The notes below the pieces were generated by a model. That model saw nothing but the letters and a program-made list of their open reading frames with translations, made no database searches and was not told the origin of the DNA. Below, piece by piece: positions 6,303 to 44,919 of a stretch of 46,017 bases of DNA. This DNA comes from Escherichia phage rolling, in the sequence record NC_073056.1. The stretch is one strand, 5' to 3'. Each line of letters opens with the position of its first letter. Position 1 is the stretch's first letter. A program made the position numbers and the translations under genes.

Positions 6303-8594
6303 TTACTTCCTGTACCGGTACATAATGTCGCCTTCGGCGGCAAGTGGGAAACCTTTCGCCCATATAGGCAGGTCGCACATCAGCGCGCAAAGCTCCTCGG
6401 TCGTGTAGTCGTCGGTGTCCGGCACTTCCGTGATCAATTCATCGTGCACTGACAGGACGATTTCATAGCCCGCAGCTTCAACACCAGGCATGGACCATGC
6501 GAGAATATCGCGGCACAACGCCTGTACGATGTTCTCCGTAAGTTTGCCGCCGTAGGTGTACTGGAATCCCCACTGGCGCGTCGTCTGATTCTCGCCCTGG
6601 TATTTGATGCGGGTACTGGTGCGCTTCTTGCCGGTGTCTTCGTCAATTTCAGTCGTGACAGACAGCGCGATGCCGGGGTAGCTCATGATGCGCCCCGACG
6701 GCAACTCAATTTTCAACCACCACCCCGCGGCGTTCGGGTCGTCGCGCTCCTCGTCGAAGGTTGGGTCGTGCTTCGCCTTCGTGCGCACAATCTTGAGCGC
6801 TTTCCTACCGTCCGGGCGAACGTTCGCGCCAGCCCAGTATGCTTTACCCGGATTGCGGATTGCACACAGCACCGCTTCCTCAAGCTCGGCCCAAAAGGCT
6901 ACGGTCTTCGGGTGCGACTCACGCCACATACGTTTGATCGCGTCGCAGGTCAACCACACGTTTTTAGGCAGTATGTAGGTTGGGCGCTCGTCTTTCTTGC
7001 CAGGCTTCGGCGGGCGCTTCGCTTCGTTGATGCGGGCAAACTCATAGCCACGCTTCGCCGCCGCCCAAATGTGATCGGGGAATGTTCCCTTCATTACGTC
7101 AGCCATCGCGTACAGGTCGAGGCCCAGGTTTTTAGCGAACTGCAAGAACGCAGCAACGCCGCCACCATATCCCAGTCCCAATTCACACGCCTTACCAATC
7201 TGGCGTAGGTCTTTGCGGTTGGCCTTGATGTAGTCCGGGTCGAGGCCGAACATCTTACCGGCAGTTTCACAATAGATATCGCGTCCGGCCTTAAACACCA
7301 TTAGCGCGGTTTTCTCGCCCGCGATCCAGGCAAGGCCGCGCCCTTCCACGTTGGAGTAGTCCGCTACGACAAACTTCTTGCCCTTAGCCGGGATAATGCA
7401 CCCGCGAACGGTCGAGGCGGTTAGCTTCGATATGTCATACGCCCAGTGTGCGGTACCGCGTAACAGGGAGTTGATGCCGTTGGTGAGCATATGAGATCGG
7501 ACCCAAAACGAAACGTCGCTCTCACCTTCTCGGCGCTTAATCTTCCCTTCGTGGTCATCACTGTACTCGCCACGTGCCAGGTTTTGAGGCTGAAAGCCTT
7601 TACCGGCCCAGCGTAGTGTGCGCTTTGCCCCACCGTACTGAAGACAACCACGGCGGCGACCATCGGCAGACAGGCCATTTACGAGCGGATTGTATTTAGT
7701 CGATGCCGTTGATGACGCACCGAGGCGCATCTCAATAAGCACTTTGCCCTCGTCGGGGAAGTCTGGATCTTCCAGCAAGTCATTCAGCGTGGATTTCTGC
7801 GCGTTGTGAATTGTGAACGCCGGGGCAATATCACGCAGGATTGGCAGGAAGTCATTGCCAGTCAGCTTACCGCCGAACAGTTCCCAGGCTTCTTCCTTCA
7901 ATTCCTCTTTATGCACCTGCACCGCCTTGATCGCGGCGTTAGCCAGGTCAACGTCCACATAGAAGCCACGGTCGTTAATCAACTGGTCAATAAGCAGGAT
8001 TTCGTCTTCCTTCGGCGTGTTACCCCAGTCCGGTATGCGCCAGTAGACTTCACGCATTGCGATAATATCCAGCGCGGCATAGCGCAGGAATTTAGCCCAT
8101 TCTTCCGGGTGTGTGTCGCGGGTGTAGCGGCGGATTTTGTAGGTCTTAGGGGTAGGCTTACAGAATCGTTTGATCAGCGCCTTGCCAGCCTTATCCTTCG
8201 CGTGCTCTGCGTCAACGCCCAGTACCCGGCATTGCATATCAAGACTACCCGGCAGCGCATGTCGGAAGGCCATAATCATGGTATCTTCGATCTGGCTTAC
8301 CGGCAGGTCAATACCCCACTTTTCACGGATAACCAGGCGGTCAAACAGGAGGCCGTTCGCCATCACTATTTTTGCTTTTTTGCGGGTTACCTGGCGGAGC
8401 GCCTTGCGTAGTTCACGCGGCATCGTGGGAGATTCAGTGGCGTCCCATGTCTGCACGCGGCCCTCGTCTATGGCGTAGGTGCAAATCATAATCTCGGTGG
8501 TGGGGTGTTCCGCGTAGGCATACGCACCTGCTTTCTTCAGGTCCACCCCGCTAAACGTCTCGGTGTCGAGAAATAGGCGTTCGAAGTCTTTCAT
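6303..8594 (-). CDS. DNA polymerase, family A, with 3'-5' exonuclease domain
   Basis: Exo I motif FLDTETFSG; Pol motif A DYSNVEGR, motif B KACELGLGYGG, motif C SVHDELITEV. Confidence 0.95.
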   Translation of the reverse strand: MKDFERLFLDTETFSGVDLKKAGAYAYAEHPTTEIMICTYAIDEGRVQTWDATESPTMPRELRKALRQVTRKKAKIVMANGLLFDRLVIREKWGIDLPVSQIEDTMIMAFRHALPGSLDMQCRVLGVDAEHAKDKAGKALIKRFCKPTPKTYKIRRYTRDTHPEEWAKFLRYAALDIIAMREVYWRIPDWGNTPKEDEILLIDQLINDRGFYVDVDLANAAIKAVQVHKEELKEEAWELFGGKLTGNDFLPILRDIAPAFTIHNAQKSTLNDLLEDPDFPDEGKVLIEMRLGASSTASTKYNPLVNGLSADGRRRGCLQYGGAKRTLRWAGKGFQPQNLARGEYSDDHEGKIKRREGESDVSFWVRSHMLTNGINSLLRGTAHWAYDISKLTASTVRGCIIPAKGKKFVVADYSNVEGRGLAWIAGEKTALMVFKAGRDIYCETAGKMFGLDPDYIKANRKDLRQIGKACELGLGYGGGVAAFLQFAKNLGLDLYAMADVMKGTFPDHIWAAAKRGYEFARINEAKRPPKPGKKDERPTYILPKNVWLTCDAIKRMWRESHPKTVAFWAELEEAVLCAIRNPGKAYWAGANVRPDGRKALKIVRTKAKHDPTFDEERDDPNAAGWWLKIELPSGRIMSYPGIALSVTTEIDEDTGKKRTSTRIKYQGENQTTRQWGFQYTYGGKLTENIVQALCRDILAWSMPGVEAAGYEIVLSVHDELITEVPDTDDYTTEELCALMCDLPIWAKGFPLAAEGDIMYRYRK

Positions 8595-8819: not shown

Positions 8820-9599
8820 TTAACGGCGGCGACGTTTACGTGGTGCTTCGTCTTCGTCGTCTTCGTCCTCATCTTCGTCATCGCGGGACTTACGACGTTT
8901 ACGCGGCTTATCGTCTTCATCGTCGTCATCTTCATCACGGCGGCGCTTAGACTTGCGCGGTTTTTCATCTTCATCATCGTCGTCACGACGTTTTGACTTT
9001 TTGGATTTACGCGGTGCTTCGTCTTCGTCATCATCCAGGTCGTCGTCAGAGCAATATGCACCGCCGCCGCCACCGAAGGAATCCCCATCATCACGGAAGC
9101 GCATACCCAGCAGACCACAGCCTAAGCCTTTGCCGTTGGTATTGTTCCAGGCCCAAATATCTAAGGAAACGTTGCAATAGCAACCGGAATAGATTTCTTT
9201 CCCTTCGATTTCGTCGCCGTCGATGGTCAGACCCTGCTCCGTCTGCTTCTCGCCTTCGGAAGTCTGGATGATCGGCTGTTTGAATGATTTAGCGTTGATA
9301 TACAGCTTACCTTCAAACTCTTCCGTTACTTCTTCACGCTCATCACCATCTCGAACGGCACATTCTTTCGAATCCTGCGCGTAGTGGCGGTCCATCCACT
9401 TATCGGCGTTCTTCTCAGACTTCAGTTTTTCGGTGAGCACTGCGCGTGCCGCCGCTTCCACTTTGTCCACCTGCGGATCTTCTTTATCAAGAATAATCAC
9501 CGCACGATATGCCGGTTTTTGTCCATCCTGTTTAGGGGTATCACGCTCCCAAATTTTCAGGAAGCATACACGTACATTTTTCAGGTTGACTTTAGCCAT
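8820..9599 (-). CDS. SSB-like protein, DUF2815 family, with unusual alternating acidic/basic C-terminal tail
   Basis: N-terminus MAKVNLKNVRVCF...GQKPAYRAVIIL resembles DUF2815 phage SSB; start at internal ATG (M32) with GAGGA RBS; last ~76 aa are D/E blocks alternating with PRKxKxRR blocks. Confidence 0.7.
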   Translation of the reverse strand: MAKVNLKNVRVCFLKIWERDTPKQDGQKPAYRAVIILDKEDPQVDKVEAAARAVLTEKLKSEKNADKWMDRHYAQDSKECAVRDGDEREEVTEEFEGKLYINAKSFKQPIIQTSEGEKQTEQGLTIDGDEIEGKEIYSGCYCNVSLDIWAWNNTNGKGLGCGLLGMRFRDDGDSFGGGGGAYCSDDDLDDDEDEAPRKSKKSKRRDDDDEDEKPRKSKRRRDEDDDDEDDKPRKRRKSRDDEDEDEDDEDEAPRKRRRR

Positions 9600-9654
9600 T
9601 TTCCAATTCCTCATTTCACATGTATCGGGGTTATTAGAAGCCACCCCGTCCGGC

Positions 9655-9678
9655 TTGGTTGCTAATGTACTTGGTTGC
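9655..9678. promoter_or_regulatory. Pair of TTGGTTGC motifs in SSB upstream region
   Basis: TTGGTTGC at 9655-9662 and 9671-9678, between membrane protein gene and SSB gene. Confidence 0.4.
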
Positions 9679-9695
9679 GTTTCCGCGGTCAAGTG

Positions 9696-9929
9696 TTATT
9701 TATCAAAAAGTTTTAAAATCAGGTCGAGATATTTGTGCAGCCACACCAGTGGTGGGCGGTGCACGTTGTTTCCCATCCAGTTCAAACAGGCTTCGTTATA
9801 GCCGTCGTCCCATAAGCGGGATGGGTGGCGAATCATCCAGGCCAGCGCCAGCAGACCGCCGCAGGTATGTACTACGAATCCCAGCGCCGCAAGCGGCAGC
9901 ACCATAATCATTGCCAGAATCTTATTCAT
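9696..9929 (-). CDS. Small membrane protein (77 aa)
   Basis: Internal ATG (M43 of track ORF 9696..10055) 3 nt after upstream stop; hydrophobic ILAMIMVLPLAALGFVV... segment. Confidence 0.5.
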   Translation of the reverse strand: MNKILAMIMVLPLAALGFVVHTCGGLLALAWMIRHPSRLWDDGYNEACLNWMGNNVHRPPLVWLHKYLDLILKLFDK

Positions 9930-11352
9930 CGCCCAAATCCTCGTCGCTTGCTTCTTGCCATTCCGGGCGCGGGTCGTCAACTGGTGCCAGGACCGGTTTC
10001 GCCGGCGCACGCGTGATTTTATCTTGCAGTTTCGCCCACACTTTCGGTTTCTCATCCTTCAGCACCTTCTCGGCATCAGTAGGGCTGATTAATGATTCCT
10101 TGTACATCAGGTCGCGCTTGATCCGGGCCGTTGTGAATACAGCGATAACTTCGCTTTCATCCTTCCACTTACGCGCACCTTCACGACCAGCTACCAGCTT
10201 CAGGCCCAGCGCTTCGCCGTCACCGGCTAACACTGCTTTGAATACGGCAGTCTCGATCGCTTTGATGTGCTGGCGCATGGTTTCCAGGCCGTCGTAAGCC
10301 TTCTTCAGTTCTTCCGTGGTCATAGCACCGGCTGGCGCTTCTTTCTTGCCACGCTTCGCACGTCGGGCAGCTTTCCGGGCTTCGAGGTCCATGTTCTGGT
10401 CGTGGTTTTTGCATTCTTCCTCGGCGGCAATGCTTACATCGTCGCCCAGGTCTTCGTCGGTTGCCGTTGGTGGCGTCATTGTGTCGATGGCGGCTTTAGC
10501 GCGGGAACTACATTGGTCCGCAAATCGACACCACTGACACGCATCGGCGCTCGGACGGAAGTCTGCACGGGTGAGATTCTTCTTACCCTTAGCGAGGGCA
10601 TCCAGGGCGGCTACTGCGCGTTTTGCTGCGTACTTGGCGAAGATTTCCAGTGCTTCCACCGAAATATCCCACTCCGACGCCCCGCCGCAATACGGCTGGA
10701 ATATGACCAGGCGCACGGTTGTTATGTCGTACATCTTTTGCAGCTTGCGCAGCAGTCCGAGCGCATACAGCATAAGCTGTTTGTTCTCTTTCGCCTCGAC
10801 CTTATGGCGCCCGGTCTTCAGGTCGCCCACAATGAGCATGTACGTGCCGTCGGTCTTCTTCATTACCATAACCATATCGGCAGTACCGAAGGTCTTGATC
10901 GCTTCGCCGTCAATCTCGTAGCCTTTGTGCAGGACGCGAGTCAGATCCGCGCGCATCTCAAGCTGTACAAACTCGGCAACTTCAAGCAGCGGTCGCCAGT
11001 GGTCGATGTACGCGTCGCACTGTTTCACCATGTCGTCAGTTACCAGGATGGCGTCCTTAGGTGCTTTAGCTGCCGCTTTAACTGGTCCTTTACCCTGATT
11101 TTCGACGTAGCACCCTTTATATGTCTTCGCCGTGATGTGGTCTTCGCCTGCAATGATGCGGTTTAGTACCACTTCAGATACGGTGTGCATACTCGTACCG
11201 TTGATCGCGGCTTGCCCGGATTCGTTCGGAATACCTTTCTCCACCACCAGGGCGGCGGGACACCCCATCCATTTTTTAGCGCCGGATGGGCCGAGTAATG
11301 AGTGTTCTGTATTACTGCCGGATTGCGTCTTGCGCTTCGCTTTGATAGCCAT
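9922..11352 (-). CDS. PD-(D/E)xK nuclease, DUF2800/Cas4-like (phage exonuclease)
   Basis: N-terminal LLGPSGAKKWMGCP, GDLKTG, C-terminal Cys cluster CQWCRFADQC; conserved neighbour of DUF2815 and pol A. Confidence 0.75.
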   Translation of the reverse strand: MAIKAKRKTQSGSNTEHSLLGPSGAKKWMGCPAALVVEKGIPNESGQAAINGTSMHTVSEVVLNRIIAGEDHITAKTYKGCYVENQGKGPVKAAAKAPKDAILVTDDMVKQCDAYIDHWRPLLEVAEFVQLEMRADLTRVLHKGYEIDGEAIKTFGTADMVMVMKKTDGTYMLIVGDLKTGRHKVEAKENKQLMLYALGLLRKLQKMYDITTVRLVIFQPYCGGASEWDISVEALEIFAKYAAKRAVAALDALAKGKKNLTRADFRPSADACQWCRFADQCSSRAKAAIDTMTPPTATDEDLGDDVSIAAEEECKNHDQNMDLEARKAARRAKRGKKEAPAGAMTTEELKKAYDGLETMRQHIKAIETAVFKAVLAGDGEALGLKLVAGREGARKWKDESEVIAVFTTARIKRDLMYKESLISPTDAEKVLKDEKPKVWAKLQDKITRAPAKPVLAPVDDPRPEWQEASDEDLGDE

Positions 11353-11791: not shown

Positions 11792-11839
11792 TATCTCGTC
11801 CTCTAAAAATAGGCCCGCAGATTAGCGGGCCGGATAATA

Positions 11840-12358
11840 TTAATCTTCTAATTCGAAATACGTTTCTACGATTTCTTTTAAATCTTTGTGGAAGTCTTCG
11901 ACGTCGTCATCTTCCAGCTTGGCGACGGATTTAATTTCGAACGCTTCCAGCAGATCATCAAATTCGTCGTTTGCGTCGTCGTCATCTCCGCCCGCAATAA
12001 TAGCGGCATACTGTTTGATTTCGTCGCGCATTTCTTTAAGCGGATCGGCATCTTTCTTGCCTTTGCCTTTCGCCGGTGCTTTCTTAGATTTCGCCGGGGC
12101 TTCTTCCTCGTCCGCGTCGTCGTCTTCTTCTACGGCTTCTTTCTTAGCCTTGCCCTTTGCGGGCGCTTTTTTGGTCTTTGCCGGGGCTTCGTCTTCAGCA
12201 TCGTCATCTTCGGCTACTTCTTCTTTCGCCTTGCCCTTTGCCGGGGCTTTCTTCGCTTCCTGTTTACCAACGGCAGCGCCAGCAGTTTCATAATGCTTAG
12301 CGATGGTTTCCAGTGCTACAACGCCGCGAGTGATCAGGTTTACGATTTGCTCAAACAT
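11840..12358 (-). CDS. Charged low-complexity protein with three KKAPAKGKxKK / acidic repeats; first leftward early gene
   Basis: ORF track; ATG with GGAG RBS; repeats EEVAEDDDAEDEAPAKTKKAPAKGKAKK x3. Confidence 0.7.
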   Translation of the reverse strand: MFEQIVNLITRGVVALETIAKHYETAGAAVGKQEAKKAPAKGKAKEEVAEDDDAEDEAPAKTKKAPAKGKAKKEAVEEDDDADEEEAPAKSKKAPAKGKGKKDADPLKEMRDEIKQYAAIIAGGDDDDANDEFDDLLEAFEIKSVAKLEDDDVEDFHKDLKEIVETYFELED

Positions 12359-12419
12359 GGTATATCTCCGATTGGTTAATTTTAAGTGTTCGGTGCGGTA
12401 TGCCCCGTCAACGAGGTGA

Positions 12420-12449
12420 ATAATAGATTGGTTGCATGCGGGGTGTCAA
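12420..12449 (-). promoter_or_regulatory. Leftward early promoter (TTGACA-N18-TATTAT)
   Basis: Minus-strand -35 TTGACA (plus 12444-12449), -10 TATTAT (plus 12420-12425); ATTGGTTGCA motif (12427-12436) fills the spacer. Confidence 0.55.
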
Positions 12450-12460
12450 CAACTAATTTC

Positions 12461-12497
12461 AAAAAAAAAAAAGCGCCGAGGCAAAATGCGACGGCGC
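12461..12497 (-). terminator. Minus-strand intrinsic terminator in divergent control region
   Basis: GCGCCG/CGGCGC stem preceded on plus strand by A12, giving hairpin + U12 on minus-strand RNA. Confidence 0.55.
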
Positions 12498-12568
12498 TAA
12501 CCAATAAGAGACAATGAGACGTGATTATTATTACACGCGTGCGCGCCCGTTTCAATATTCAAAAGGAG

Positions 12569-12597: not shown

Positions 12598-12628
12598 CGT
12601 TGGTCATTAACCAATAGGAGACAGAACA

Positions 12629-12958
12629 ATGCATATCAACGACGCAATCGAAATGTTAACCAATGCTGTTAGCGGTGAGACAAGCCGGTCCTGGGCTTAT
12701 ACCGATGCCGTGGGTGAGGTGCTATTTGAAATCGAACGTCTGCGCAGTGTCGAAAAAGAATTGCGCGCCAAGCTGGAATTGCTAAACGGTACGGCAGCAA
12801 GCAAGTTGCAAAAGCACAACGAAGAAATGGAAGAATACAAAAAGCAGGTTATCCGTTTACGCGACGAGGGCAAGTCCTGGGCGATGATTGCCGAGTTGAC
12901 AGGAATTAATCAGAGCACCGTACGCTCATGGGTACGCAATAATAAAACTTCTAAATAA
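12629..12958 (+). CDS. HTH DNA-binding regulator (109 aa)
   Basis: C-terminal helix-turn-helix SWAMIAELTGINQSTVRSWVRN; ATG with AGGAG RBS. Confidence 0.75.
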   Translation: MHINDAIEMLTNAVSGETSRSWAYTDAVGEVLFEIERLRSVEKELRAKLELLNGTAASKLQKHNEEMEEYKKQVIRLRDEGKSWAMIAELTGINQSTVRSWVRNNKTSK

Positions 12959-12968
12959 GGCAACGGCA

Positions 12969-15230
12969 ATGAGAGATTATTTAATTGAGTTCGGCACCGT
13001 CGGCGGTAAATACGGCAAACGTGTTAAAAACCATTCTATGACTGAAGCCGAGTTTATGGAATACGTCGCTGATACCGTTGAATTATCCAGCGTAACCATT
13101 ACCGGCGACGAGACTAAGAAAGAATACGACGAGGTGAAAGGCAAGGCGGAAGGCATTGTCGCCACCACTAAAGGCCGGGGACGTCGTGCTACGGAAGTGG
13201 GTGTCCGTTCCGTACTGTTCTATGACCTGGACCGCACTGACAACCGTACCCTCGGTCGCGTTAAGCGTGCCTTTCGCAAATCCGGCTTATCCCACGTCTA
13301 CTACTCCACTACAGGCGACCGCCACCCGCTGAAGGGCGGCACACGTTGCGCCCGTTTCCTGGTGCTCACTGATAAACCGGTTGATGTTTCCGATTTAGGC
13401 CGTGCGCAGTTCGCACTATTGAAACACCTGGGGCTGGAAGACGTGCCGTTTGATGATTGCACAAAAAACGTTAACAACCTGCAATTCCTCCCCCATTCCG
13501 GATCTACCGTGTCGTGTCATCCTGGCACGCCAGCCCGTGTCCGTCGTCTGCTTCGCCTGGCTGACAAGCTGGGAGTGGAGAAAGAGGAAGTACGCCGCGA
13601 ACTGACCCAGGGCGACGATGGCGTGGCGGACGGGATTCTGGATTGGTGCTTCCAGGCTGGCTTTGAACCACTGTCATCCGGTCGCGGTTATGAAGTGCCG
13701 TGCCCGAACGAGCACCTGCATAGCGGCGGCGGGTCGACGGCTATCATGGTTAAGGATGGCGAGATCCGTTTCAAGTGTATGCACACCGGAAACGAGTGCT
13801 GTTCCGAACTGAACAGACACCAGCACCTGGCGCTACGTCTTATAGGGATCCCGGACCACCTGAACGTCGAACCGCACAACATGTCACGTAAGCAAATCGC
13901 CGCCATTCTCCCTGGACTGGACGACGAGGAAGTCGAATCGTGCTATGAACATATTGTTGATGCAGTTGGCGACGGCGAAGAATACGGCGTGTGCACCGAT
14001 GCGGATCTGGATAACGAGCCGGTCGCACTCTTCAGTAAGCACGACCCGATCATAGAAGGCCTGGTAAACTTCAAATCGACCTGGTACATGGCTGGCGAGT
14101 CGAACATCGGTAAATCGTTCTACGTGCTGGGGCAAATGGGCGCGGTTGCCGCGGGGATTCCGTTCGGTGGCGCGAAGGTAGTCCAGTCTCATTGCTTCTA
14201 TTTCGACGCGGAAGGTGGTGAAGCCTCCAACCAGCGTAAAGAAGCATTGCAGATTAAATACGAGCACGACCTGGACAAGCTGCACATTATCGATCTGCAA
14301 TCACGCGGCTGGGATATCACCAGCAAATCCGGCTTGCGTGAAGTTATCAGCTTCATCAACCGCACCGCTAACGGCGAGCCGGTTGGCCTGGTGGCGTTCG
14401 ACTCACTCAACCAGACTGTTGCGCTGCGGTCCGCCGATGCAAAACCGTTCGACGAGAATAACGCCAGCGATATGGGTGAAGTGGTCAAAGCGCTGAAGGC
14501 CATTGCGGAAAATACAGGCGGCAGTGCGGGCGTCATCCACCACCCAGCGAAGGGTGCAAACGGCAGCAGATCTCCCCGTGGGTCCGGCGCGCTTCATGGT
14601 GCTGTTGATTCTGCGTTCTTCCTGGAACAGCCGGATGACAACCAGCCAGGCCAACTCAACCTGTATCACGAAAAATCCCGTAACGGGATTAAGCAAGCGC
14701 CGCGTGGCTTCGTCCTGCTCAAATGCAAGGTGAAGGTGGATCTCCGTAAGTCCGAGGCGTTCGAAGCCCACCAGTCCACCAGCACCGGTCCGGACTTCGG
14801 CGATGTGGTTGCCGGTTGGGACGTCAAGCCAATTGCATCCACGCCACGCGACGAGACTCTCTACCTCGTACCGGTCGCCCTGGCACCGTTCGCTATCGAA
14901 CAGGCGAAGGCGGCTGGCAAGGCAGCAGTTAAGGAAGAGAACACCGCCGGTCCGCGCAACGAAAAAGAGAAAGTGCTTTATGCGGCGCTGGAAAAACTGA
15001 TGGAAGATAACCCGGACCATACCGGATTCAGTAAATCGGCAATTGTCCGCCAGGCAGGGCTGGCAAAAGGTGGCACTTCGACGAAGGCAATCGACGATAT
15101 GGTGGAGCGCGGAGTGATAGGTTTTTACACCGATCCGCACACCGGGGCCATCTATGGGTCGTCTAATTTGGTCATAAAAACGAATATACCCATCACGCTT
15201 TCGGCGACCGATGACGACCTGAAAGATTAA
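12969..15230 (+). CDS. Primase-helicase replication initiator (primase-polymerase N-domain, RecA-like ATPase, C-terminal winged-helix-like region)
   Basis: Walker A GESNIGKS, RecA-like AFDSLNQ / VIHHPAKG segments, C-terminal HTH-like tail. Confidence 0.85.
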   Translation: MRDYLIEFGTVGGKYGKRVKNHSMTEAEFMEYVADTVELSSVTITGDETKKEYDEVKGKAEGIVATTKGRGRRATEVGVRSVLFYDLDRTDNRTLGRVKRAFRKSGLSHVYYSTTGDRHPLKGGTRCARFLVLTDKPVDVSDLGRAQFALLKHLGLEDVPFDDCTKNVNNLQFLPHSGSTVSCHPGTPARVRRLLRLADKLGVEKEEVRRELTQGDDGVADGILDWCFQAGFEPLSSGRGYEVPCPNEHLHSGGGSTAIMVKDGEIRFKCMHTGNECCSELNRHQHLALRLIGIPDHLNVEPHNMSRKQIAAILPGLDDEEVESCYEHIVDAVGDGEEYGVCTDADLDNEPVALFSKHDPIIEGLVNFKSTWYMAGESNIGKSFYVLGQMGAVAAGIPFGGAKVVQSHCFYFDAEGGEASNQRKEALQIKYEHDLDKLHIIDLQSRGWDITSKSGLREVISFINRTANGEPVGLVAFDSLNQTVALRSADAKPFDENNASDMGEVVKALKAIAENTGGSAGVIHHPAKGANGSRSPRGSGALHGAVDSAFFLEQPDDNQPGQLNLYHEKSRNGIKQAPRGFVLLKCKVKVDLRKSEAFEAHQSTSTGPDFGDVVAGWDVKPIASTPRDETLYLVPVALAPFAIEQAKAAGKAAVKEENTAGPRNEKEKVLYAALEKLMEDNPDHTGFSKSAIVRQAGLAKGGTSTKAIDDMVERGVIGFYTDPHTGAIYGSSNLVIKTNIPITLSATDDDLKD

Positions 15231-42814: not shown

Positions 42815-42894
42815 GGTATCATCTCCTATATTTGGTTGGGTTTTAGTATTGCACCGCTCAACCAAGAATGCAACCAATTTATGAGGATTCAGCT

Positions 42895-44919
42895 ATGGCA
42901 GCGGGTACACTATCCGTAACGAATAACAGCAAGGCGGTAGTCGGTGTCGGCACGACGTTCACCGCGTTTAAAGCTGGCGACTTCTTAACGTTGGTGGTGG
43001 GGCAAGTCCCTTACACTGTTGCTATCGCGTCCGTCGAAAGCGACACCGCGCTTACGCTGGTGCTGCCGTTCGACGGCCCCACGGCAACCGGCCTTGCCTG
43101 GGATGGCGTTGCGCGTGATACCATGTCCCTGGCGACGATGGGCGTAACAGTCCAGGCGCAGAAAGCATTTCGCTTGATGATTGCAGATGAAAACAACTGG
43201 CGTGCCATCTTCGGCGACGCTGAAGAAATCACAGTGACGTTACCAAACGGGCAGGTTATGCAGGGCATGTCATGGGGCTATCTGTCAAGTCTTCTAAAAG
43301 ACGTTGACCCGGTGGAGCTTCAGAATATTGCCAACCAGGCGGTGAGCGCGAAAAACCAGGCTGTAACCGCGAAAAACGATGCTGTGTCTGCCAAGAATGA
43401 TGCGCAGACTGCGAAGACTGCCGCAGAAACAGCGCGCACGCAAGCCCAGTCGGCTAAGACCGCCGCAGAGTCAGCACGTGACGACGCGCAGACGGCTAAG
43501 ACTGCCGCAGAAACAGCACGCACCCAGGCACAGACCGCGAAGACCGCCGCAGAAACCGCCAAGGGTGCGGCGGAAGACGCCCGCGATGAGGCGAAGCAAT
43601 ATGCAGAGCAAGCCGGAGCACCATATAAGCAGGTATTACAACCGCTACCAGACGTGTGGATTCCGTTTAACGATTCGCTGGATATGCTCGCAGGCTTCGC
43701 GCCCGGATACAAGACGGTTACGGTAGCCGACGACGAGGTTACTATGCCGAGCGACAAGGTGGTGTCGCTCAAGCGCGCATCAACGGCAACATATATTAAC
43801 AAGTCCGGCGAGTTTAAAATCGCAGAGATTGACGAGCCGAGATTCGAAAAATACGGCCTGCTCATTGAAGGCCAACGCACTAACCACATCATCAACGGGG
43901 GCGCTCCGGCTGGCTGGGGCCACAGCACATCGGTTGGCGTGGTTACGGGTACAGATGCTTTCGGTTTCTTGTATGGAAAGTTTGGTATCGGCCAGGGCGA
44001 CGTGGGCAGTACGACTGCGCTTAACCTGGCTTCCGTAACATCAGCAAACAGTCTGGATACTTCCGGCGTCGATAAGTATGTAACGGCGTCATGCCGCTTT
44101 CGGTCCGACAAGGATGTACGTCTTCGTGTGCGTTTTGCAGAAGGCGCGGATCAAGGCAGCATGGCTTTCTCTGGCGACGCGTACATTAAATTAAGCGATT
44201 TGTCCGTGTCTAAGACGGGTGTCGCGGCAGACCGCATTACCGTAGAAGTCGAGAAAGACGAAGCCACCGGATGGAATCGTGCGGTGGTAATGCTGCAAGC
44301 TACCACGGCGCTGGTGAACGCGCAGATCCAGATCTCGCCAGTGAGCAGTTATGCTGCCGGTGATTATATCGAACTGGCAACTCCGCAGGTTGAGTTAGGG
44401 ATCGGGGCGTCTTCATATATCATCTCCGGCACATCTCCAACCACACGCGCTAGCGATATGGTGACGGTACCGGCTAACCGCAACCTGTATAACCTGCCGT
44501 TTACGGTGCTTGTAGAAGTTCACAAGAACTGGTCTAAGGCGCCGAACGCAGCGCAGCGTGTATTCGACACCGGCGGTCATCAATCGGGTGCGGCTATTAT
44601 CCTGGGATTCGGGTCTGGCGCTATTGACGGGTATCCGTACTGCGACATCGGCGGTGCTAACAGACGTTTGAATGAAAACGCAGGGCTTAAGCATATGGTT
44701 ATGGGTATGCGTGTGAAAGAAAACCAGGACACTTGCGCGGTGAGTAACGGCATTCTTTCGACCGAATCGAAAACCACATGGACCTACCTGAAAGGGTCTG
44801 CGACGCTGCGAATCGGGGGTCAAACAACGACTGGAGACAGACACCTGTTCGGGCACGTCCGTAACTTCCGTATCTGGCATAATGCGCTGACCGACCTACA
44901 AATGGGGGAATTAGTGTGA
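42895..44919 (+). CDS. Tail fibre protein with internal Ala/Thr/Lys-rich tandem repeats
   Basis: Internal ATG (M10) with GAGGA RBS; repeats AKNDA.. / QTAKTAAETARTQ. Confidence 0.75.
   Translation: MAAGTLSVTNNSKAVVGVGTTFTAFKAGDFLTLVVGQVPYTVAIASVESDTALTLVLPFDGPTATGLAWDGVARDTMSLATMGVTVQAQKAFRLMIADENNWRAIFGDAEEITVTLPNGQVMQGMSWGYLSSLLKDVDPVELQNIANQAVSAKNQAVTAKNDAVSAKNDAQTAKTAAETARTQAQSAKTAAESARDDAQTAKTAAETARTQAQTAKTAAETAKGAAEDARDEAKQYAEQAGAPYKQVLQPLPDVWIPFNDSLDMLAGFAPGYKTVTVADDEVTMPSDKVVSLKRASTATYINKSGEFKIAEIDEPRFEKYGLLIEGQRTNHIINGGAPAGWGHSTSVGVVTGTDAFGFLYGKFGIGQGDVGSTTALNLASVTSANSLDTSGVDKYVTASCRFRSDKDVRLRVRFAEGADQGSMAFSGDAYIKLSDLSVSKTGVAADRITVEVEKDEATGWNRAVVMLQATTALVNAQIQISPVSSYAAGDYIELATPQVELGIGASSYIISGTSPTTRASDMVTVPANRNLYNLPFTVLVEVHKNWSKAPNAAQRVFDTGGHQSGAAIILGFGSGAIDGYPYCDIGGANRRLNENAGLKHMVMGMRVKENQDTCAVSNGILSTESKTTWTYLKGSATLRIGGQTTTGDRHLFGHVRNFRIWHNALTDLQMGELV

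Follow-up and report, generated by a model that had tools for sequence, protein, structure and literature searches.

A PHROG 3127 protein with a charge-block linker encoded at the head of the replication module of Escherichia phage rolling

The genome of Escherichia phage rolling (NC_073056.1; one strand of 46,017 nt, hereafter the window) carries a leftward gene at 11840-12358, which we call the head gene and its product the head protein. The protein can be assigned by profile matching to PHROG 3127, a catalogued and widespread family that is uncharacterised. Comparison of viral loci indicates that the gene is a syntenic core part of the replication/recombination module across several phage groups, and this genomic context is the strongest lead on its role. 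Our tentative reading, which we regard as a real possibility somewhat short of an even chance, is that the head protein serves this module as a flexible electrostatic adaptor. The initial annotation, made from the sequence, had instead likened the protein to linker histones and proposed a nucleic-acid-binding or host-takeover role.

Family, architecture and charge of the head protein

The predicted gene is a real open reading frame (ORF) of 172 aa on the minus strand. The 1.6-kb region around it matched 153 phage records at 80–95% identity, almost all from Escherichia phages of the genus Dhillonvirus (HK578/SSL-2009a/SO-1 type), and the window can be classed as a Dhillonvirus-type E. coli siphophage. 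The features of the gene and its product are as follows, with structure predictions from AlphaFold2 (AF2).

12420..12449, minus strand: sigma-70-type promoter of the head gene, TTGACA, 18-nt spacer, TATTAT, 11 of 12 consensus positions
12359..12419, minus strand: 5' leader of the head gene, with a GGAG Shine-Dalgarno sequence at 12366-12369, 7 nt from the ATG
11840..12358, minus strand: coding sequence of the head gene, 172 aa, ATG start, member of PHROG 3127; translation re-checked
12275..12358, minus strand: predicted N-terminal amphipathic helix, residues 1-28 (MFEQIVNLITRGVVALETIAKHYETAGA), from conservation, AF2 and hydrophobic moment
12044..12274, minus strand: predicted disordered block-polyampholyte linker, residues 29-105, with three KKAPAKGK blocks and two acidic blocks
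12046..12253, no strand assigned: tandem DNA repeat encoding the linker (Tandem Repeats Finder, TRF: period 87, 2.5 copies, 77% matches, score 224)
12230-12256, minus strand: basic block 1, AKKAPAKGK, residues 35-43
12149-12178, minus strand: basic block 2, KTKKAPAKGK, residues 61-70
12062-12091, minus strand: basic block 3, KSKKAPAKGK, residues 90-99
11843..12043, minus strand: predicted acidic three-helix C-terminal domain, residues 106-172, net charge about -18 to -20, from AF2 and alignment
11812-11831, minus strand: intrinsic terminator immediately past the stop codon, with the stem-loop GGCCCGC-loop-GCGGGCC and then a T-run

The head protein matched the PHROG 3127 profile with an E-value of 1.2e-49 (residues 1-172 against positions 1-178 of 178), and the same profile was matched by all 43 diverse homologues. 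A search of 5.8 billion proteins returned 173 homologues, with database members P0001-P0003 being 98–99% identical to the window protein. The homology search that the initial annotation had asked for thus leads to a family without an assigned function. Other members (SO-1 gp46, eiAU Gp46, EE09 CDS56 and welsh_33) share the architecture, genomic position and variable repeat linker of the head protein, with no substantive difference. Pfam and NCBIfam searches assigned no family and gave low-complexity noise only (e.g. BUD22, 15.8 bits against a cut-off of 37), no Protein Data Bank sequence reached an E-value below 0.09, whether the query was the single protein or a C-domain profile, and apart from one named protein considered below, all Foldseek hits in BFVD were family members or unnamed proteins. 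No functional study of the head gene was found in the searchable literature.

Structure prediction indicates that the protein is mostly disordered, and its composition is strongly acidic. The N-terminal helix has a hydrophobic moment of 1.28 per residue (Kyte-Doolittle scale) and is modelled by AF2 over residues 2-26/28 at low predicted local distance difference test (pLDDT) values; its residues R11, V13, A15, E17 and A20 do not vary in 43 sequences whose identity falls as low as ~30%. Residues 22-102 have pLDDT < 50, with predicted disorder through about residue 105. The C-terminal domain is predicted to form three helices (106-123, 127-143 and 150-168), a bundle with pLDDT of 75–79 in the full-length model and 82–89 in the model of a short-linker homologue (P0090), and its alignment has 25 invariant columns; like the N-terminal helix, it stays conserved at identities as low as ~30%. 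A profile of this domain, built on the final 70 residues and searched against 1.84 billion cluster representatives, matched 40 representatives at 50% clustering; these are mostly small proteins of ~115–212 aa with the domain C-terminal in essentially all, together with a few shorter gene fragments, and three of them have two matched stretches. An EF-hand-like reading of the loop GDxDDxxDxF was rejected, the spacing being unlike that of a canonical loop.

The three near-identical KKAPAKGK blocks alternating with acidic stretches, and the non-repetitive ends that flank them, are present as initially annotated. The repeat length of ~35 aa given there is too long, the period being 27–29 aa (81–87 nt), and the three repeats, each said to join an acidic stretch to a basic block, amount to 2.5 units: there are three basic blocks with only two acidic stretches between them, and after the third block the sequence passes into the C-terminal domain, which is conserved and not repeated. 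A separate repeat search found three 65-nt copies spaced by 87 and 81 nt. Over the whole protein there are 29 Lys and Arg (K+R) against 50 Asp and Glu residues, giving a net charge of -21 and an isoelectric point (pI) of 4.5. The repeat region (residues 32-102) is exactly neutral, with 20 basic and 20 acidic residues, and the last 70 residues, the C-terminal domain, have a net charge of -20. Charges in the linker are strongly segregated, with a Das-Pappu-type delta of 0.270 compared to 0.079 ± 0.030 in 5000 shuffles, none of which reached the observed value (z = 6.5; kappa ~0.53).

The resemblance to linker histones therefore holds for the 9–10-residue basic blocks and fails for the protein as a whole, given its net charge and pI and the zero net charge of the repeat region. 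C-terminal tails of histone H1 and bacterial 'H1-like' proteins (AlgP, Hc1, and the tails of HupB/MDP1) share the local K/A/P composition of these blocks, but are strongly basic overall, unlike the window protein; compared with H1/H5, it lacks a winged-helix globular domain or a Pfam match, and AF2 predicts only helices and disorder. The histone-like interpretation was largely a compositional impression, and the protein is not histone-like.

The repeat itself is the least conserved part of the protein: over all homologues the linker is highly variable in both sequence and length, spanning about 17 to 90 aa with one to three basic blocks. Among 97 Dhillonvirus-type cluster representatives the linker ranges from 17 to 81 aa; two basic and one acidic block are found in 37, three and two in 44 (including the window), and single-block forms are rare. 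Several variants, P0037 and P0015 among them, differ by one exact repeat unit, and linker copy number apparently changes by whole repeat units, via unequal recombination or slippage. One-basic-block variants occur naturally, as in P0090 (122 aa, on full-length 44.8-kb phage contigs) and P0097 (115 aa), and since such near-linkerless forms occur on full-length phage contigs, the repeat number appears not to be critical. The basic block adjoining the C-terminal domain is kept in all homologues, with K99 nearly invariant and K101 invariant. The alignments thus show sequence constraint in the two conserved ends, with the repeat as an expandable, charge-balanced and, by prediction, flexible linker.

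Genomic context, SSB tails and expression

The head gene stands first in a leftward set, followed in the window by small ORFs and then by genes for a nuclease, an SSB (protein that binds single-stranded DNA) and a polymerase, with the named genes all on the minus strand. On the other side it diverges from a gene for a small helix-turn-helix (HTH) protein and a primase-helicase gene.

9922-11352, minus strand: DUF2800 PD-(D/E)XK nuclease, leftward set
8820-9614, minus strand: gp2.5/Enc34-type SSB, leftward set; proposed partner of the head protein, as we infer
6303-8594, minus strand: DNA polymerase A (PolA), leftward set
12629-12958, plus strand: small HTH protein, 109 aa, divergent neighbour
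12969-15230, divergent, rightward: primase-helicase, from the ORF map and annotated relatives

Relatives at 45–60% identity occupy the same position in metagenomic phages, Guernseyvirinae (Shemara, Tsm2) and Eiauvirus. In these groups, as in Dhillonvirus, the gene lies at or adjoining the head of the nuclease-SSB-PolA set and diverges from the HTH regulator and primase-helicase genes; Enc34 ORF3 occupies the same head position. To survey the module more widely, we took 80 loci with gp2.5/Enc34-type SSBs from viral contigs and used an iterated profile restricted to SSB loci (90 in all). With the C-domain profile, the family was present in every locus that had both an SSB at least 43% identical to that of the window and an intact upstream flank. 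The iterated profile found a related small ORF in 77 of the 90 SSB loci, on the strand of the SSB gene in all 77 and nearly always 1–5 kb upstream; most of the 13 loci without a match have cut flanks. The part of PMC8093625 that describes the duf2800-gp2.5-polA module counts it among the commonest replication/recombination cassettes of tailed phages, and the head gene goes unmentioned in that description.

Weak profile matches (E-values from 1e-3 to 1e-10) tentatively link PHROG 3127 to a wider set comprising PHROGs 18562, 408, 3709 and 7721. Eleven of the 43 PHROG 3127 members also match phrog_18562 (best E = 9e-6), and a distant head protein from locus L069 matches phrog_3127 (E = 5.4e-6) as well as phrog_18562, 408 and 3709. 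Enc34 ORF3 is a phrog_7721 protein that matches phrog_18562 at 3.8e-3; direct hhalign comparison of the family with Enc34 ORF3 gave only a 12-residue match at 5% probability. Genes of the wider set are likewise small, lie upstream of the nuclease and SSB genes and are co-oriented with them; in their products, an N-terminal helix is followed by a disordered linker rich in Pro/Ala/Lys/Glu and by a helical C-terminal domain that carries the common motif LR..I....A....LL..(F/G)GV.K(L/F)S.L.D..L..F. They differ from the window protein in linker sequence and charge, many linkers being rich in Pro/Ala and poor in charged residues, and in a C-terminal domain that for most of them is close to neutral, compared with a strongly acidic one in the window protein.

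Within the replication region, just one further coding tandem repeat occurs, in the tail of the SSB (8854-8981, period 57 nt, 2.3 copies by TRF). This tail consists of tandem acidic and basic blocks, with DDDDEDEKPRKSKRRR-type units, and ends in APRKRRRR. Classical gp2.5-type SSBs have short, purely acidic tails (PMC5686142), as does Enc34 ORF6, the SSB of that phage. Every locus matched by the C-domain profile of PHROG 3127 (profile A2) has a block-polyampholyte SSB tail with K+R of 6–29, and ~35 fetched loci have classical tails with K+R ≤ 3. Five more loci with long block tails (L063, L064, L076, L087 and L088) carry distant relatives of the head gene, with C-domain charges of -5 to -11 and RGRP-type linker motifs. 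Over 77 loci, the net charge of the head-protein C-domain was correlated with the K+R of the SSB tail at r = -0.75, uncorrected for phylogeny. The paired traits, an acidic C-domain and a basic-block SSB tail, occur in two well-separated clades of the SSB-core tree. Short of proof, this covariation is suggestive of an electrostatic coupling between the head protein and the SSB. By eye, repeat number showed no clear relation to SSB tail length among ~12 Dhillonvirus loci; no correlation was computed.

The signals around the gene suggest that it is highly expressed. Its near-consensus promoter is kept in other Dhillonviruses including EE09, and a T12 tract lies immediately upstream of it in the window. 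The GGAG sits within a motif, TTAACCAATCGGAGA, that is common to the leader of the divergent rightward gene, and a repeat search found an inverted repeat (I1, 12358-12380/12606-12628) and a direct repeat (D4) in the leader regions. The terminator has a folding free energy (dG) of -17.2 kcal/mol (z = -4.8), and among relatives its stem is kept while the loop varies. The gene had been described as promoter-proximal in a leftward early operon; its position agrees with this, being the first after the strongest leftward sigma-70-like promoter in a divergent control region, while 'early' follows from the promoter type only. The head gene looks like a promoter-proximal unit, with a terminator that would attenuate transcription into the downstream replication genes. 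Given a strong promoter of its own, a strong ribosome-binding site and an immediate terminator, the head protein would be made at a much higher level than the products of the downstream genes. Another promoter-like site, at 9692..9664, belongs to the SSB gene itself.

In agreement with high expression, published proteomics of phage EE09 detected only four phage proteins in infected cells at 25 min, including CDS56 and CDS61, and the 24 proteins listed for the lysate/virion preparation do not include CDS56 (PMC10673088). We mapped CDS56, annotated with a spurious 60-residue N-terminal extension, to the head-gene orthologue and CDS61 to the SSB. The presence of CDS56 in infected cells and its absence from the lysate/virion list argue that the head protein is abundant and non-structural, contradicting the label 'prohead core protein' that one orthologue bears.

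Two further observations concern the flanks of the gene. Most relatives have a ~125-nt extra segment in the 5' leader between promoter and ATG (e.g. 4840-5025 in L009, the EE09 locus), and the window is a short-leader form. The insert is in frame, so that many GenBank and UniProt entries call a 207–239-aa protein with a spurious N-terminal extension (MQDANWRG...). An Rfam scan of the insert found nothing, and scans of the control region gave sub-threshold, terminator-like matches only. Downstream of the orthologous gene, the sequence in L001, L003, L013 and L016 differs from that in the window; for L001 and L003 the annotation gives it as a 114-nt ORF (~37 aa, MDYEMRI(T/M)LDFIAENWAAF...), inserted before the next conserved gene and missing from the window.

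Candidate roles of the head protein

In the adaptor reading, the product would be an accessory protein without enzymatic activity, highly expressed and mostly disordered, that serves the replication/recombination module. This module comprises the DUF2800 nuclease, the gp2.5/Enc34-type SSB (also an annealing protein), PolA, and the divergent HTH regulator and primase-helicase. The head protein would act as a bivalent electrostatic tether or adaptor. Through its N-terminal helix it would self-associate or dock on a conserved partner. Its acidic C-domain and the acidic blocks would bind to basic surfaces, for which the basic blocks in the polyampholyte SSB tail are the most plausible candidate, and the Lys-rich blocks would give weak, non-specific contacts to DNA or acidic partners. 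The net effect would be to organise or buffer the interactions of the SSB and the replisome on phage DNA. A functional parallel may be seen in T7 gp2.5, T7 gp4 and E. coli SSB, whose acidic C-terminal tails serve as electrostatic interaction hubs and share the replication context, disordered charged segments and an aromatic-acidic C-terminus (...TYFELED in the head protein; SSB background in PMC5686142). They differ in that the charged element here is a separate protein with folded ends, and in that the cognate SSB tail is polyampholytic with the basic end APRKRRRR, compared to an acidic-aromatic tip.

In a more specific version, which we consider rather unlikely, the head protein and the gp2.5-type SSB would be a co-evolving electrostatic pair that forms a fuzzy multivalent complex or condensate, concentrating the SSB and replisome on phage DNA. 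Both proteins would be abundant block polyampholytes, and repeat copy number would tune their valency. In at least two separate lineages the tandem acidic/basic SSB tail would have replaced the classical acidic tail, and the head-protein C-domain would have turned strongly acidic.

Several points weigh against the adaptor reading and its link to the SSB. Any direct contact between the head protein and a partner is a candidate interaction that we infer. The charge covariation represents about two independent clades, with r lacking phylogenetic correction, and the charge pattern could instead result from a general tendency of the lineage towards expanded charged low-complexity sequence. Some loci depart from the trend: Enc34 ORF3 has a charge of about -9, by our own residue count on the translation, yet the SSB tail of that phage is purely acidic, and L085 (-8) and L075 (-6) are also off the trend. 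The EE09 proteomics come from one study at one time point and are non-quantitative, and as to expression timing, the named Foldseek match in BFVD, a distant homologue in Salmonella phage MB78, is called '13.88 kDa late protein'. Finally, the iterated profile may have been helped by low-complexity linkers; this concern is reduced by the consistent synteny and the independent match of the L069 protein to phrog_3127, together with the common N-terminal helix and C-terminal motif.

The DNA-binding role suggested by the initial annotation can be restated as that of an H1-like or HMGA-like architectural protein, whose Lys/Ala/Pro blocks would bind in the DNA minor groove, with this binding modulated by the acidic blocks and C-domain in the manner of HMGA or acidic-tailed HMGB. 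HMGA and the HMGA-like domains of bacterial CarD-type proteins combine AT-hooks with an acidic region. The head protein resembles them in having several short basic Pro/Gly-containing motifs and acidic segments in a disordered chain, and some family members have RGRP cores; it differs in having PAKGK instead of RGRP and no AT_hook match, in acidic residues that outnumber the basic blocks, and in folded conserved ends that are absent from HMGA. The three KKAPAKGK blocks, the abundance expected of an architectural factor and the basic block kept beside the C-domain in all homologues (K99, K101) speak for such a role, as do the RGRP cores of distant relatives: APAKRGRPAKSKA (P0103), APRGRGRPPK (L076), PKRGRGRPAG (L088) and KPRGRPKK (L074). 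Pfam AT_hook scores of these RGRP-bearing relatives are sub-threshold (14.4, 13.3 and 11.7 bits against a cut-off of 17.4), and the core varies even among close relatives (KRTRAAK vs KRGRPAK). The window protein itself has no RGRP core and no match to Pfam AT_hook, Linker_histone, Hc1 or HC2 even at E ≤ 10. Its net charge of -21 and pI of 4.5, a linker with no net charge, a basic-block number that is not conserved (1–3) and a constraint concentrated in the non-basic ends also argue against architectural DNA binding, which we judge improbable. The basic blocks may nonetheless contact DNA weakly, given the always-kept block and the AT-hook-like RGRP cores that distant relatives carry.

A host-takeover or anti-defence decoy, i.e. 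an abundant, first-expressed acidic protein that mimics nucleic acid as T7 Ocr does and blocks a host DNA-binding enzyme or nucleoid protein, would fit a first gene after a near-consensus promoter with its own terminator, a strongly acidic product (-21 overall, -20 in the C-domain) and abundance in infected cells. We nevertheless consider it equally improbable. Across distant phage groups the gene belongs to the syntenic core of the replication module, unlike a variable accessory gene, so that the host-takeover role put forward initially is not indicated. The C-domain is near neutral (-4 to +1) in many relatives, which makes the acidity specific to a lineage and not a property of the family; no solved DNA mimic (Ocr, ArdA, Arn class) resembles the protein in sequence or fold, and a three-helix bundle of ~65 residues is small for a DNA mimic. 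Published defence triggers of Dhillonvirus/SECphi18 are other genes (Ksap1, portal protein, SSB and DNA polymerase). Least credible, and in our view very improbable, is a structural or assembly protein. This is how the orthologue in the GenBank record of phage vB_EcoS-UDS3lw is annotated ('prohead core protein'), and the charged, disordered composition is loosely like that of scaffolding or internal proteins; the gene, however, is part of the replication module and distant from the head genes, no function is assigned to PHROG 3127, and the EE09 orthologue was present in infected cells and absent from the 24-protein lysate/virion list.

Other features of the window and significance

The neighbouring HTH gene (12629-12958, plus strand) carries varying labels in sequence records ('Gam nuclease inhibitor', 'transposase', 'resolvase'). 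The protein showed only a C-terminal sigma-70 region-4/IS630-type helix-turn-helix at sub-threshold scores, with a probable coiled coil before it, and is more likely a small transcription regulator.

Between the divergent promoters lies a candidate small RNA of ~58 nt (~12462-12521, minus strand), preceded by a promoter-like site (12555..12527, minus strand; TTGAAA-17-AATAAT with an upstream TG). It would have a single-stranded 5' part (CGUCUCAUUGUCUCUUAUUGGUUA) followed by a terminator hairpin and U12 (dG -16.7 kcal/mol, z = -3.2). The candidate is conserved across Dhillonviruses, with compensatory changes in the hairpin stem in L011, and has no Rfam match. Its 5' part is predicted to form 16–17 bp with the Shine-Dalgarno leader of the HTH gene (12606-12624) at -24.1 kcal/mol, which ranks with the best non-self sites of the window (mean -9.4, SD 3.3); the predicted pairing with the leader of the head gene is weaker (-18.2 kcal/mol).

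Far from the replication region, tandem repeats with periods of 21 and 42 nt lie at 43333-43560 (plus strand) within a 683-aa ORF (42868-44919) and encode AKxxAxxA heptad-like units (…DAQTAKTAAETARTQAQ…). The ORF probably encodes a tail-fibre protein, the repeats being consistent with a repetitive coiled-coil shaft.

For annotation, these results correct several GenBank labels: 'prohead core protein' and the 232-aa N-terminally extended coding sequences for the head gene, and 'Gam', 'transposase' and 'resolvase' for the neighbouring HTH gene. They also provide a testable lead, in that a conserved head gene of a very common module encodes a protein which, like the SSB, has charge-block repeats, with charge covariation between the two. 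If the head protein is indeed abundant and acts as an electrostatic adaptor for the SSB and the replisome, it would be a new component for T7-type replication systems and would explain why the SSB tails here depart from the canonical acidic tail. The link to the SSB would also be relevant to defence systems that sense the SSB, such as Retron-Eco8, from which Dhillonviruses escape by SSB mutations.

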